A stretch of 64,000 nt of DNA from Myxococcota bacterium (GTDB taxonomy: Bacteria; Myxococcota_A; UBA9042; PHBI01; JACKFB01). Positions 33,991 through 40,062 of this stretch are shown piece by piece. Positions within the stretch are counted from its first letter, which is position 1, and each line of letters starts with the position of its first letter. Under the pieces are notes generated by a model. That model saw nothing but the letters and a program-made list of their open reading frames with translations, did not search any database and had not been told where the DNA came from. The DNA is taken from NCBI GenBank assembly GCA_051747385.1, contig JBNJGB010000033.1:164-64163 (forward strand), written 5' to 3'. The translations under genes and the position numbers were made by a program.

Positions 33991-36354
33991 ATGGCCGCAG
34001 ACAAGGGACGCGAGGCCGGGACGCGGCGCTCCAACTTCATCACGGACATCGTCGACGCCGACCTGGAGGCGGGCACGTACGACCGCGTGGTCACCCGCTT
34101 CCCGCCGGAGCCGAACGGGTACCTCCACATCGGGCACGCCAAGTCCATCTGCCTGAACTTCGGCCTGGCCGAGCAATACGGCGGGGAGTGCCACCTCCGC
34201 TTCGACGACACGAACCCGGTGAAGGAGGAGGACGAGTACGTCCGCTCCATCCAGGACGACGTGGCCTGGCTCGGCTTCGAGTGGGGCGAGCGCCCGTACT
34301 TCGCCTCCGACTTCTTCGAGCAGATGTACGACTGCGCCGTCCGGCTCATCCGCGAGGGCAAGGCCTACGTGGACAGCCTGTCGAGAGACGAGATCCGCGA
34401 GTACCGGGGCTCCTTCGACGAGCCCGGGCGTCCCAGCCCCTACCGGGATCGCTCCGTCCAGGAGAACCTGGAGCTGTTCGAGCGCATGCGGAAGGGCGAG
34501 TTCGCCGAGGGGGAGCACGTCCTGCGCGCCCGCATCGACATGGCCTCGCCGAACATGCTCATGCGGGATCCGCTCCTGTACCGGATCCTCCACCAGGCGC
34601 ACCACCGGACCGGCGACGACTGGTGCATCTACCCGATGTACGACTTCGCCCACTGCCTGGAGGACGCCTTCGAGGGCGTGACCCACTCCATCTGCACCCT
34701 GGAGTTCGAGCAGAACCGCGAGCTGTACGACTGGGTCCTCCGCGAGGTGGGGATCTTCGACACCCCGCCGAAGCAGATCGAGTTCGCCCGGCTGGAGCTG
34801 GGCTACACGGTCATGAGCAAGCGCAAGCTGCTCCAGCTCATCGAGGAGGGCTACGTCGACGGCTGGGACGACCCGCGCATGCCGACCATCGCCGGCCTCC
34901 GCCGCCGCGGCATCACCCCCGACGCCATCCGGCAGTTCGCGGACATGATCGGCGTCGCCAAGACCAACAGCGTCGTGGACATCGGCAAGCTGGAGTACTG
35001 CATCCGCGACGACCTGAACCACAAGGCGCCCCGCGTCATGGGCGTGATCCGGCCGCTGAAGGTGACGGTCACCACCTGGCCCGAGGGGCAGTTCGACGAG
35101 CTGGAGGCCGCCTACTGGCCCCACGACGTCCCCAAGGAGGGCTCGCGGAAGGTGCCCTTCGGGCGCGAGCTGTACATCGAGCGCGACGACTTCATGGAGG
35201 ACCCGCCGAAGAAGTGGTTCCGCCTCGCGCCGGGCAAGGAGGTGCGGCTCCGCTACGGCTACGTCATCCGCTGCGACGAGGTCGTGAAGGACGCCGGCGG
35301 CGAGGTCGTGGAGCTCCGATGCTCCCACGATCCCGCGACCCGCGGCGGACACGTCCCCGACGGGCGGAAGATCCGCGGCACGCTGCACTGGGTCTCGGCG
35401 GTCCACGCGGTCCCGGCGGAGGTGCGGCTGTACGATCGCCTCTTCCGCGCCGAGCGTCCCGACGCCGATCCCGAGGTGGACTTCCACGAGAACCTCAACC
35501 CGGGGTCGTTGGAAGTCATCGAGAATGCGCGGGTCGAGCCGAGCCTCGCGGGGACGGAGGCGGGGACGCGGGTGCAGTTCGAGCGCCAGGGCTACTTCAT
35601 CGCCGACGAGGAGGACTCGCGGCCCGACGCGCTGGTCTTCAACCGGATCATCGGCCTCAAGGACTCCTGGGCGAAGATGACCGGCAAGGCGAAGCCCGCC
35701 ACGGAGCGGACCCGCAGCACCCGCTCGAAGTCCGCCGCGCGCCGGGCGGAGCGTGCCGAGCGGGCCGCCGAGCGCACGTCGCCGGTGGACGAGCGCGACC
35801 GCCTGCGCGCCGAGAACCCGACCCTGAAGGGCCGCTTCGATCGCTACGTGGGCGAGCTGGGCCTGGAGCGCGACGACGCGGACGTGCTCACGGGCGACGA
35901 GCGCCTGTCGGACTTCTTCGAGGCCGCCCTGGCCGCCCACGACAGCCCGGAGACGGTCGCCAACTGGGTGGTCAACGAGGTGCTCCGGGAGCTGAAGGAG
36001 CGCTCCCTCGACGCTCTCCCCTTCGGCGGCTCGGAGCTCGGCCGCCTGGTGGCCCTGGTGGACGACGACACGATCTCGTCCACGGCGGGCAAGGAGGTCT
36101 TCGCGCACCTCGTGGAGCACGGCGGCGACCCCGAAGCGGTCGTGGAGGACGAGGGCCTCCGCCAGGTCAGCGACGAGGCCGCCCTCCGGCCCGTCGTCGA
36201 GCGCGTGCTGCAGGCCCATCCCGACGAGGCGGAGCGGCTCCGGGGGGGAGAGAAGAAGCTCCTGGGCTTCTTCATCGGGCAGGTGATGCGCGACACTGGG
36301 GGCAAGGCCGATCCCAAGCTCGTCCGTGCCCTCCTCCAGGGCGCCGTCCAGTAG
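33991..36354 (+). CDS. glnS: Glutamine--tRNA ligase with C-terminal GatB/YqeY domain
   Basis: [16 protein letters not shown] (HIGH), [21 protein letters not shown]-like RGTLHWV; C-terminal [18 protein letters not shown]qeY tail. Confidence 0.96.
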
Positions 36355-36433
36355 CTCAGGGGACCACAGTCCGATGTCCGGAAGACGTACAGGCGGCGAC
36401 GCCAACCGGGCCACGTGAGCAGCAGGATGCCGC

Positions 36434-38672: not shown

Positions 38673-38847
38673 TGAAAGAGCGACTCCCGCCGGGCTATCC
38701 CTGCGCGGGCGGGGACGCCCGCGGTCCCGGGCGCCGGTCGCGTTTCCTGGGATGGCGGGCCAGACGTGGGGTGGCTCCTGGTCGACGAGTGCAGGCGAGA
38801 TGTGCGCGACCGACGGGCGAGGTAGCCGGCGCCCCGGCCGAAAGAAG

Positions 38848-40062
38848 TCAGCCAGCCTCCTCGGCGAGGAAGCAGGCCAGGGCGGCGGTGCGGCGCCGGA
38901 GGCTGCCCAGGCTGGACCACTCCTCGACCCGGTGGAAGTGCTCTCCGAAGGGGCCCAGGCCGTCGATGGCGGGCACGCCCGCGGCGGCGAAGAGGTTGGC
39001 GTCCGACGTGCCGCCCTGCAGCGGGGCCTCTCCCACACCCAGGCCGGCCTCGGCGGCGCAGCGCTCGTAGCGTCGCCGGAGGGCCCGGGACGCCTCCGTC
39101 GCCTCCATGGGCGGGCGCGTGATGCCGCCGGACAGGGTCACCTCGACCCGCCGGAGCCTCGCGGGGACGTCCCGGTCGCGGAAGGGGTCGGCCGCGATGG
39201 TCTCCAGGGACGCGAGGACCCACGGCCCGTCCTCGGCGTGCTCGAAGCGGGCGTCCAGGACGCAGCGGGCCAGATCCGGGACGGTGTTCTTGGCCGTCCC
39301 GCCCTCGAAGATGCCCACGTTGAAGGTCACGCCGCGATCGTAGTCCGTCAGCGCCTCGATCCGATCCACCGCCACGGCCAGGGCGTGGATGGCGCTCGCC
39401 CCCTGCTCGTGCGACAGGCCCGCGTGGGCGGAGCGGCCGCGCGCCGTGAGGGTCACCATGGCGCCGCCCTTCCGCCGCGTGATGATGCGATCGCCCTGTC
39501 GGCCCGCCTCGAACACCAGAGCGGCCGTCGTTCGGGCCGCGACCCGCGCGATGAGGCCCTCGCTCGACGGCGAGCCCACCTCCTCGTCGCTGTTGATCAG
39601 GATCCGCGTCCGCAGCCGCGCGTAGCGCTCGGGATCGACCGCTCGGACGGCCCGCAGCGCGAAGAACACGGCGCTGAGCCCGGACTTCATGTCCAGCACG
39701 CCGGGGCCCCGGACCACGTCGCCGGGGCCGTCGGGGCCCTCGTCGCGGCGCAGGTGCAGGAAGCCGAGGCTCCGGGGAAACACCGTGTCCACGTGGCCCA
39801 CCAGCGCGAGGGCCCGGTCCCCGTCGCCGGTCGCGGGCGTCCGATAGAGGCGGTGATCGGCGAACTCGCCGGACGGGTCCGGGTGCAGGGAGCGGACCAG
39901 GCCGAGGTCCTCCGCCGTCTCGTCCACGAGGCGGGCCGTGGCCTCCACGTCGTCGCGCGCCTTCGTGTAGCTCGGCTGCTCGACCAGGCGGGTGAGCCAG
40001 GGGACCTGCTCCGCCTCGAATGCGGCGTCCACGGCTTCTCGGACGGCGTCGTCGATGGCCAC
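38848..40062 (-). CDS. M20 family metallopeptidase (carboxypeptidase G2-like)
   Basis: GHVDTVF, GPGVLDMKSG, SDEEVGS, SAHAG, DGLGPFGEHFHRVEE; GGGAGG RBS before GTG 40062. Confidence 0.9.
   Translation of the reverse strand: MAIDDAVREAVDAAFEAEQVPWLTRLVEQPSYTKARDDVEATARLVDETAEDLGLVRSLHPDPSGEFADHRLYRTPATGDGDRALALVGHVDTVFPRSLGFLHLRRDEGPDGPGDVVRGPGVLDMKSGLSAVFFALRAVRAVDPERYARLRTRILINSDEEVGSPSSEGLIARVAARTTAALVFEAGRQGDRIITRRKGGAMVTLTARGRSAHAGLSHEQGASAIHALAVAVDRIEALTDYDRGVTFNVGIFEGGTAKNTVPDLARCVLDARFEHAEDGPWVLASLETIAADPFRDRDVPARLRRVEVTLSGGITRPPMEATEASRALRRRYERCAAEAGLGVGEAPLQGGTSDANLFAAAGVPAIDGLGPFGEHFHRVEEWSSLGSLRRRTAALACFLAEEAG

Follow-up and report, generated by a model that had tools for sequence, protein, structure and literature searches.

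PEARLs have the fold of the LanB glutamylation domain but not the elimination domain, and their ATP-grasp-like site phosphorylates a carboxylate. As described, both PEARLs and LanB glutamylation domains use aminoacyl-tRNA (PMC11117183, PMC11212132); they share conserved residues proposed to bind it, to which PEARLs add a set of ATP residues (PMC11212132). PEARLs have also been proposed to derive from ATP-grasp enzymes, whose nucleophiles are simple amines, by taking on aminoacyl-tRNA as an unusual nucleophile (PMC11117183). The term "tRNA-independent" does not occur among the matches listed for the PEARL and lantibiotic dehydratase literature. Here, we describe a gene for a 723-amino-acid (aa) LanB-like/PEARL-type protein, P0001, in a 64,000-nucleotide stretch of a draft Myxococcota genome; this whole stretch is "the window," and residue numbers are those of P0001 unless another protein is named. 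The protein appears to keep the ATP site of a PEARL, and most of the residues that would hold the end of the tRNA have been replaced. Our reading, which we hold with roughly even confidence, is that P0001 is an intact variant of the PEARL fold, without canonical aminoacyl-tRNA docking and under selection for a changed role.

The gene occupies 36434..38605 of the minus strand and begins with GTG. It is recognized by its open reading frame (ORF), a family profile, a predicted fold, and a strong coding signal, with a GC content at third codon positions (GC3) of 0.94 and an intact frame-specific composition; the GC content of the window is about 73%. The source genome is a draft of 79 contigs, 6.44 Mb in size and 96.9% complete, in which P0001 is the sole member of its superfamily and present in a single copy. 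No other small LanB is encoded there, and the suggestion in the preliminary description of this DNA that the protein might be a catalytically dead partner subunit loses its footing, there being no partner for it in a genome of that completeness.

Standard annotation does not recognize P0001. Apart from a weak match to HTH_AsnC (E 0.0045), taken up below, Pfam gave no match even at E<=10 (PF04738 included), and NCBIfam likewise gave none. PF04738 also returned nothing from the whole genome, but the same search was silent in all 14 control genomes; the family is present in 16 of the 19 superfamily members tested. Homology emerges from sequence profiles. A search of 5.8 billion proteins returned nine relatives at 37-46% identity together with one annotated lantibiotic dehydratase (E 1e-14). 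When a nine-sequence profile (A1) was searched against 1.84 billion representatives, 4231 matched at E<=1e-3, of which about 25 form a tight group above 300 bits, followed by a step in score and then a large family of ~830-aa proteins. Against PDB sequences, A1 found no LanB; detection needed a profile of 24 sequences (A2), which matches TbtB (6ec7) at E 4.7e-18.

The predicted structure agrees. An AlphaFold2 model of P0001 (predicted local distance difference test, pLDDT, 74.2; predicted template modelling score, pTM, 0.74) was searched with Foldseek, and the top 11 matches were all LanB, split-LanB, or GodF structures (TbtB, MibB, NisB, MadB, and GodF; E 2.4e-11 to 5.4e-07). The best was TbtB 6ec8 (E 2.4e-11), and weak echoes of glutathione synthetase (8fbz and 2hgs, E 0.04-0.9) came after the LanB matches. 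Similarly, the 30 nearest clusters in the ESM Atlas are all Lant_dehydr_N sets. Membership of the Lant_dehydr_N/PEARL superfamily is real but remote, and is reached through the family profile and the predicted fold rather than through standard annotation. The earlier label of "lantibiotic-dehydratase-N protein" stands as a statement of homology and falls as an annotation, with neither Pfam nor NCBIfam recognizing the protein. Residues 150-220 (37946..38158, minus strand) are modelled as three strands followed by three helices at pLDDT 75-93, and the matching part of the profile gives weak matches to ArsR winged helix-turn-helix (wHTH) domains; the weak HTH_AsnC match points the same way. This segment, missing from several members of the subfamily described below, is probably an RRE-like wHTH and a probable peptide binder.

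For residue-level comparison, P0001 was aligned with 148 superfamily representatives of 600-1000 aa, giving 149 proteins. The 148 were drawn from 159, leaving out a duplicate of P0001, an opposite-strand ORF, an S8 protein, and proteins outside the length range. The ATP-site segment D454...E470-x-H472 (DLMLGARGEDVTPVLSEGH; 37190..37246, minus strand) is intact in P0001, D454 being found in 148/148, H472 in 143/148, and E470 in 111/148 of the representatives. So is the C-terminal ATP/adenine pocket of R623, F659, K667, E696, and E716-x-R718 (36452..36739, minus strand), in which R623, K667, E696, E716, and R718 are each present in 148/148. P0001 also retains R17, which is found in 142/148.

These positions can be placed on characterized enzymes, by spacing and by a hidden Markov model (HMM) alignment to TbtB rather than by direct alignment to BhaB7 or TglB. 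In the HMM alignment to the TbtB chain, R623 and F659 fall on Arg743 and Phe783, with a numbering offset of three that is the same for both; TbtB Arg743, Phe783, and Glu851 are described as common to PEARLs and split LanBs (PMC11117183). The same source gives Asp and Arg at the positions of TglB D542 and R803 as states confined to PEARLs, with Tyr and Leu in split LanBs (PMC11117183). The phosphorylation residues specific to PEARLs (TglB D542, E801, and R803, and a conserved His) would be represented in P0001 by D454, E716, R718, and H472. The modelled ATP ligands of BhaB7 are R34, Y426, D558, E575, H577, R715, F755, K763, E813, and R815 (PMC12945691). By spacing they would correspond to P0001 R17, position 305, D454, E470, H472, R623, F659, K667, E716, and R718, and nine of the ten are present.

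P0001 ends with its glutamylation-like domain and has no elimination domain. The elimination domain PF14028 gave no match anywhere in the genome, and the same search was positive in four of five control genomes, so that a separate elimination-domain partner encoded elsewhere, as in a split system, did not turn up. Because Asp454 and Arg718 are present and PF14028 is missing from the genome, P0001 is not a split LanB (LanB_B). By fold and by its ATP-site signature it appears instead to be a stand-alone PEARL-type member of the LanB superfamily, the ligand assignments being inferred; this agrees with the preliminary description, which had placed it among PEARL-like relatives of LanB glutamylation domains.

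The residues that in other members are predicted to surround the tRNA end look very different. In the motif 1 region (residues 64-94, DGTDDDPGVESGLWRDLQRVLAQNYCTSRFG; 38324..38416, minus strand), P0001 carries Y79D, K86Q, D/E88Y, and F92R and keeps R82, N87, and G94. Position 79 is Y, F, or H in 146/148 representatives, 86 is K in 147 and R in the remaining one, 88 is D or E in 148/148, and 92 is F in 110 and H in 21; R82, which is kept, is found in 148/148. In the motif 2 region (residues 296-310, PPLAGSTELPPSDGL; 37676..37720, minus strand), where the consensus is RRxxGxxYA(D/S)R, the changes are R299A, G302T, Y305P, and R308D, at positions that are R in 143/148, G in 143/148, Y or F in 143/148, and R in 147/148, respectively. 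P0001 alone of the 149 aligned proteins lacks Y79, K86, D/E88, R299, G302, Y305, and R308. In addition, the basic stretch that precedes motif 1 (consensus GRRNxxDRKRER) is shortened and acidic (DGTDDDPGVESG). A compensated frameshift was considered as the origin of the altered motifs and rejected; the other two frames hold no canonical motifs.

At 97 related loci, every one of the 126 motif-1 instances has R82, K/R86, and D/E88, and every one of the 119 motif-2 instances has Y/F305 and R/K308; the pattern used for the metagenome motif search expressly admitted the variant found in P0001. The preliminary description had noted an altered active-site motif, and the strings that it quotes (DLQRVLAQNYCTSRFGP, VLSEGH, and SELR) and the N-terminal Arg (R17) are all present; the motif state is unique against the 148 representatives. 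The alteration is more striking than first described: a second motif has been wiped out and the basic stretch deleted too.

What these residues do in characterized enzymes bears directly on whether P0001 could still work as a PEARL. In an AlphaFold3 model of BhaB7, a helix with R197, Q201, Y205, and R208, together with R429 from a loop, holds the 3'-CCA of the tRNA; R208A, Y205A, and R429A each impair the enzyme severely, and in TglB a mutation at the counterpart of R208 abolishes ligation but spares phosphorylation (PMC11962472). By spacing, BhaB7 Y205-x-x-R208 corresponds to P0001 79-82 (D-L-Q-R), and Y426-x-x-R429 to 305-308 (P-P-S-D). Likewise, the MadB counterparts of the residues that are essential to glutamylation by NisB include Arg89, Arg93, and Thr95 (PMC12241602), and their R-x3-R-x-T spacing corresponds to R82-x3-Q86-x-Y88 of P0001. 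Three of the lost residues therefore match, by spacing, positions at which a mutation cripples BhaB7 or which are essential in NisB. From the set of tRNA 3'-end residues shared with LanBs, P0001 keeps R82; otherwise it shows Y79D, K86Q, D/E88Y, R299A, G302T, Y305P, and R308D. We infer from these correspondences that P0001 retains the ATP residues and has given up most of those shared for tRNA, R82 and R17 excepted.

One could argue that P0001 is still a canonical PEARL, transferring an amino acid from aminoacyl-tRNA onto the C-terminus of a substrate, peptide or small molecule, that is encoded at another locus, with other residues compensating for those replaced. R82 is the counterpart of BhaB7 R208 and of the Arg essential for the tRNA step in TglB, R17 is that of TglB R10 (PMC11962472), and the ATP site is complete. 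An RRE-like domain also appears to be present, and SnaE (PMC11212132) and SinB1/SinB2 (bioRxiv 10.64898/2026.05.21.726688) are described as working on small molecules without a nearby precursor. Against this, seven residues conserved in 143-148 of the 148 relatives have been swapped for unlike ones, the basic stretch ahead of the helix has given way to acidic residues, and at two of the equivalent positions in BhaB7, Y205 and R429, a single Ala is already reported to cripple the enzyme. Nor does such a state occur in any of the 126 motif-1 or 119 motif-2 instances at the 97 loci. We consider unchanged PEARL activity doubtful; P0001 is probably no longer an ordinary PEARL.

Are the changes concentrated in the two motifs, or is the protein eroding throughout? 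Mismatches were counted leave-one-out over the 149 proteins. At the 20 columns conserved to at least 95%, P0001 has four mismatches, the highest of the 149 (median 0), and all lie in the two motifs. At the 29 columns conserved to at least 90% it has five, tied highest with one other protein, and all fall among the 10 columns inside the motifs; the remaining 24, of which 19 lie outside the motif windows and five inside, are all retained. At the 54 columns conserved to at least 80% there are 12 mismatches, again tied highest (median 4), eight of them in the motifs. The hypergeometric probability of the clustering at the 90% level is 0.002, a figure that is illustrative, the motif windows having been picked after the data were seen. 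Within its subfamily, in a set of 18, P0001 deviates at 8 of 42 otherwise invariant columns, and the other members at 0-5, mostly conservatively; its own deviations (R72V, K86Q, F92R, R299A, G302T, A306P, R308D, and L692V) are radical.

That subfamily comprises about 25 representatives at 50% identity (e.g., P0004, P0005, L001-L008, and L087-L095). Its named sources are all metagenome-assembled genomes of Myxococcota or Deltaproteobacteria, and the remainder are metagenomes. A member occurs in 7 of 60 related genomes (8 of 61 with the source genome), none of them from the source genus. In a quick maximum-likelihood tree of 27 rows (20 subfamily members, six outgroup sequences, and P0001), the subfamily is monophyletic with 100% support in the SH-like approximate likelihood ratio test (SH-aLRT), and P0001 groups with P0004 and the L001/L004 clade (97%). 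The end branch of P0001 measures 0.63 against a median of 0.41, and other members reach 0.69-0.96; on this tree the branch length is ordinary, with no sign of a general acceleration in the P0001 lineage. No orthologue closer than 44-49% identity was found in the 5.8-billion-protein search, the genome collection, the 60 related genomes, or the metagenome contigs. On the metagenome contigs, the single-protein query gave no match; the alignment query found 28 loci, and the motifs of every one are canonical.

These data also bear on a second alternative, in which P0001 is a recently disabled relic, the last remnant of an ancestral PEARL cluster that has lost its partners and its tRNA site, has no function, and has not yet gained stop codons. 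The gene is orphaned, in single copy, without precursor or tailoring genes, and the partner genes seen beside its relatives are absent apart from generic paralogues; genomes of the same family carry tandem pairs of subfamily paralogues. P0001 has the most mismatches at near-invariant columns of any of the 149 proteins. At 73% GC, long ORFs can survive by chance, and one of 717 codons runs along the opposite strand. There is also some structural contrast with a control model of P0004, built with the same nine sequences (pLDDT 77.4): the N-terminal strands that carry R17 are modelled at pLDDT 27-37 in P0001 against 70-75 in P0004, and the strands after motif 1 are better modelled in P0004 as well. 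We treat this contrast between the two models as soft evidence.

A relic would nevertheless have to explain why all 24 of the other columns conserved to at least 90% are retained, why the terminal branch is ordinary, why GC3 stands at 0.94 with frame-specific composition intact, and why more than ten separate changes are confined to two motifs, which is unlike uniform neutral decay. We regard the relic as possible, on the unlikely side. Because those other columns are kept and the branch is ordinary, relaxation of the tRNA-contact residues alone is favored over uniform decay. For the same reasons, strongly conserved positions being kept elsewhere and the branch not being long, we prefer selection for a changed role, and free decay fits less well.

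Several observations weigh against that preference. R82, which corresponds to BhaB7 R208, the most critical Arg among the tRNA contacts, is kept, and part of the tRNA binding may therefore remain; P0001 residues were mapped onto BhaB7 and TglB by spacing, and the ligand contacts in BhaB7 are AlphaFold3 predictions (PMC12945691, PMC11962472). At the columns conserved to at least 80%, 4 of the 12 mismatches lie outside the motifs (F21L, L29V, V551A, and E665V), and two other proteins show mismatch totals similar to that of P0001. The model is uninformative about the motif-2 loop, which lies below pLDDT 50 in P0001 and in the P0004 control alike. The protein is known from a single sequence in a draft genome of 79 contigs, and its nearest relatives, at 44-49% identity, are too distant to bear on conservation of the altered motifs or on the ratio of nonsynonymous to synonymous substitution (dN/dS). 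A gene that has only just died could show the same picture after two recent segmental events.

If P0001 is indeed a PEARL-fold variant selected for a changed role, the mechanism might run as follows. The ATP, Mg, and adenine pocket is preserved, together with the probable peptide-binding wHTH, and the residues predicted to hold the CCA end (the aromatic at 79, K86, the acidic residue at 88, residues 305-308 of the YxxR loop, and the basic stretch ahead of the helix) have been replaced by unlike residues or deleted. The most likely consequence is that P0001 still binds ATP, and perhaps activates a carboxylate, without docking aminoacyl-tRNA in the canonical way. The changed role could then be ATP-dependent activation for attack by another nucleophile, or a function in binding or regulation. 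A more specific proposal, which we offer tentatively, is that P0001 has given up aminoacyl-tRNA altogether and either passes an acyl-phosphate to a non-tRNA nucleophile or works on a peptide C-terminus as an ATP-dependent kinase or binder, perhaps acquired together with a cytoplasmic M20 enzyme in one 7.1-kb segment. Were that so, it would be a living example of the transition from ATP-grasp enzymes to PEARLs, run in reverse. The sequence signature suggests that P0001 has probably been either retooled or recently disabled, with a second half-reaction unlike that of a PEARL or with no activity.

We turn now to the neighborhood. The preliminary description had P0001 as a 723-aa ORF converging on a glnS-YqeY gene and downstream of a same-strand M20 gene, and coordinates and coding signal agree. 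The glnS-YqeY fusion (33931..36354, plus strand) encodes a housekeeping glutaminyl-tRNA synthetase (GlnRS; NF011291, 1206.7 bits against a cut-off of 681), and 79 bp separate the two stops. The M20 metallopeptidase gene (38848..40134, minus strand; 428 aa, signal peptide not evident) lies 242 bp upstream of the P0001 start. Its product is an M20 enzyme by Pfam, with PF01546 and PF07687 above cut-off; the NCBIfam matches to PRK07338 (224.5 bits, cut-off 357) and to the glutamate carboxypeptidase PRK06133 (155.9, cut-off 349) are both sub-threshold. Beyond it are a secreted S8 subtilase gene (40695..43466, plus strand; PF00082 and translation) and a superfamily 1 (SF1) helicase gene (43474..46653, minus strand; AAA_11/AAA_12). 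The S8 ORF was listed from 40020, where it overlaps the M20 start; 40695 is the likely start.

As first reported, genes for LanC, YcaO, an elimination domain, a transporter, or a clear precursor are lacking from the 35 window ORFs covered by the Pfam scan. No gene for a carrier peptide, an NRPS, or another source of substrate was seen among them either, and the small ORFs in the gaps at 38606-38847 and 46654-48385 include no convincing precursor. A scan of 36300-40400 for promoters and terminators gave a single promoter-like site, on the plus strand at 40096-40125, and no terminator. The 242-bp gap also holds a perfect-looking tandem hexamer, (GCCCTT) x7.5 (38628..38672; Tandem Repeats Finder score 83), which lies 23 bp upstream of the P0001 start codon and reads GCAAGG on the strand of the gene; it is a possible regulatory or slippage-prone element.

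The preliminary description had raised the idea that P0001 and the M20 peptidase form a pair, the former appending an amino acid, perhaps Gln by way of the adjacent GlnRS, and the latter removing it later. The two are same-strand neighbors 242 bp apart, together with the S8 gene they fill 7.1 kb that is absent in the relative G008 and so may have arrived together, and the last step of pearlin pathways is described as release of the modified residue by a protease (PMC9303977). Those amino-acid-releasing proteases are described as membrane-bound, however, and the M20 family goes unmentioned in the part of that account that concerns them (PMC9303977). The window neighbors were searched with tblastn against the flanks of related loci, up to 10 kb for 69 genome loci and up to 8 kb for 28 metagenome loci, many of which end at contig ends. 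Homologues of the M20, GlnRS, S8, helicase, GNAT, and FAD-oxidoreductase proteins were found in 0/69 genome and 0/28 metagenome flanks, and the matches were limited to generic two-component and sigma-54 regulator paralogues at L001, L008, and L092. The combination of LanB-like, M20, and glnS genes, in short, does not recur at these loci.

Across the related genomes, homologues of M20, GlnRS, and the LanB-like protein are spread over separate contigs or stand about 190 kb apart, and the best M20 homologue in 18 related genomes is 39% identical and on unrelated contigs. GlnRS-YqeY is the only GlnRS of the source genome, in single copy, and was found in 17 of the 19 genomes searched. Because it is a single-copy housekeeping gene that never stands beside the LanB-like genes of those genomes, its adjacency to P0001 looks accidental, as the preliminary description had allowed. 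The residues that P0001 has lost are also the very tRNA-end contacts on which an addition of Gln would depend. We judge the add/remove pair to be very improbable.

The S8 protein is no better a candidate. It has a signal peptide, Cys-rich modules, long runs of PTDPED repeats (repetitive in the DNA at 42606-43336), and a MYXO-CTERM-like tail (TIGR03901, 19.1 bits against a cut-off of 20); being extracellular by its signal peptide and tail, it is an unlikely partner for P0001. The glnS, M20, and S8 genes are not conserved partners of P0001. In G008, a helicase homologue lies 85 bp from glnS and convergent with it (tblastn on L082); three other relatives show no shared synteny. Given that gap of 85 bp, the 7.1 kb at 36355-43473, which holds the LanB-like, M20, and S8 genes, would be extra DNA by this one comparison, and the segment looks like a variable insertion site. 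No convincing flanking repeats marking a mobile element were found around 36.3-43.6 kb.

The contexts of the relatives are of interest in their own right. At L001:6329-12085 and L004:6176-12154, genes for a flavin monooxygenase (FMO) and a SAM methyltransferase are divergent from a gene for a 456-549-aa protein that overlaps the start of the LanB-like gene; the short contig at L005:206-3392 shows only the 456-549-aa-type protein and the LanB-like gene. The LanB-like members of these three units lack the wHTH segment, and the combination of FMO, methyltransferase, 456-549-aa protein, and LanB-like protein is a candidate for an uncharacterized pathway. L002:3452-7791 and L008:7212-12292 each carry a tandem pair of subfamily paralogues (about 40% identity within the pair); a conserved 135-aa ORF follows downstream, and a gene for a conserved ~1000-aa protein lies upstream and divergent. 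Tandem pairs are also found in G001 and G004, which belong to the taxonomic family of the source genome, and other relatives are singletons in unrelated contexts. None of these partner genes (FMO, methyltransferase, 456-aa, 135-aa, and ~1000-aa proteins) was found in the source genome beyond generic paralogues.

Elsewhere in the superfamily, the metagenome loci L110, L102, L101, L096, L103, L104, L109, and L112-L114 hold two or three LanB-like paralogues each, reminiscent of multi-PEARL clusters, and the matches include a 1503-aa protein (P0117) in which a radical SAM domain (325-483) is fused to Lant_dehydr_N (837-1306). The window itself has other genes worth recording. A 1898-aa protein at 6982-12678 combines many EGF/cEGF/EGF_CA and TSP3 repeats with a C-terminal OmpA domain, an unusual, eukaryote-like adhesin architecture. 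An HTTM-domain protein (the domain of vitamin K-dependent gamma-carboxylase) is encoded at 15792-17255 (E 4.8e-13). A 181-aa FAD/NAD(P)-oxidoreductase ORF at 33119-33664 aligns with the N-terminal dinucleotide fold and with Pyr_redox_2 profile positions 180-282 (of 291) only, and is possibly a shortened or fragmentary gene.

Why should one more orphan gene matter? An untouched ATP site beside replaced tRNA-end contacts, in a full-size protein of the PEARL fold, would be a case of the two half-reactions separated in nature. If P0001 is active, it shows what else the fold can do and helps to assign residues to the tRNA or to the ATP; if it is inactive, it is an orphan on its way out. The case is limited to one draft-genome sequence that lacks close orthologues and informative neighbors, but the residue pattern is clean. 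The subfamily around it is uncharacterized and offers tandem pairs, RRE-less members, and the unit of FMO, methyltransferase, and protein of unknown function.

How, then, does P0001 compare with what is known? Relative to its own subfamily it is 37-49% identical over the full length, belongs to the same length class, and shares 34 of the 42 subfamily-invariant positions; every other member keeps (Y/F)xxRxxxKN(D/E) and RRxxGxxYA(S/D)R, and P0001 has neither. Like the PEARLs (TglB, BhaB7/BhaB_C-Trp, the AmmB enzymes, SnaE, and SinB1/B2; about 700-850 aa), it is a stand-alone protein with a glutamylation-like fold and no elimination domain, and it has their Asp454, Glu716-x-Arg718, His472, adenine-pocket Arg623 and Phe659, and N-terminal Arg17. 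As with SnaE and SinB, no carrier-peptide gene was seen beside it. In contrast to the PEARLs, it is shorter than most (723 against about 800-850 aa), goes unrecognized by PF04738, and shows no biosynthetic neighbors. It would lack the equivalents of BhaB7 Y205 and R429 and, as modelled, of Y426; K86 and D/E88, otherwise universal, are missing, as is the basic stretch ahead of them.

Its best structural matches are TbtB, GodF, NisB, MibB, and MadB, whose N-terminal helix motif (with Arg82) and Arg/Phe adenine pocket it shares. Split LanBs and class I LanBs use no ATP, whereas P0001 keeps the ATP residues of PEARLs; they work with an elimination domain or protein, of which the genome of P0001 has none; and they keep Arg or Lys at the equivalent of K86, where P0001 has Gln. 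Glutathione synthetase and other ATP-grasp ligases are more distant still: P0001 shows weak echoes of their fold, but they give no significant sequence or fold match to P0001 alone, which is a full-size enzyme of the PEARL fold.

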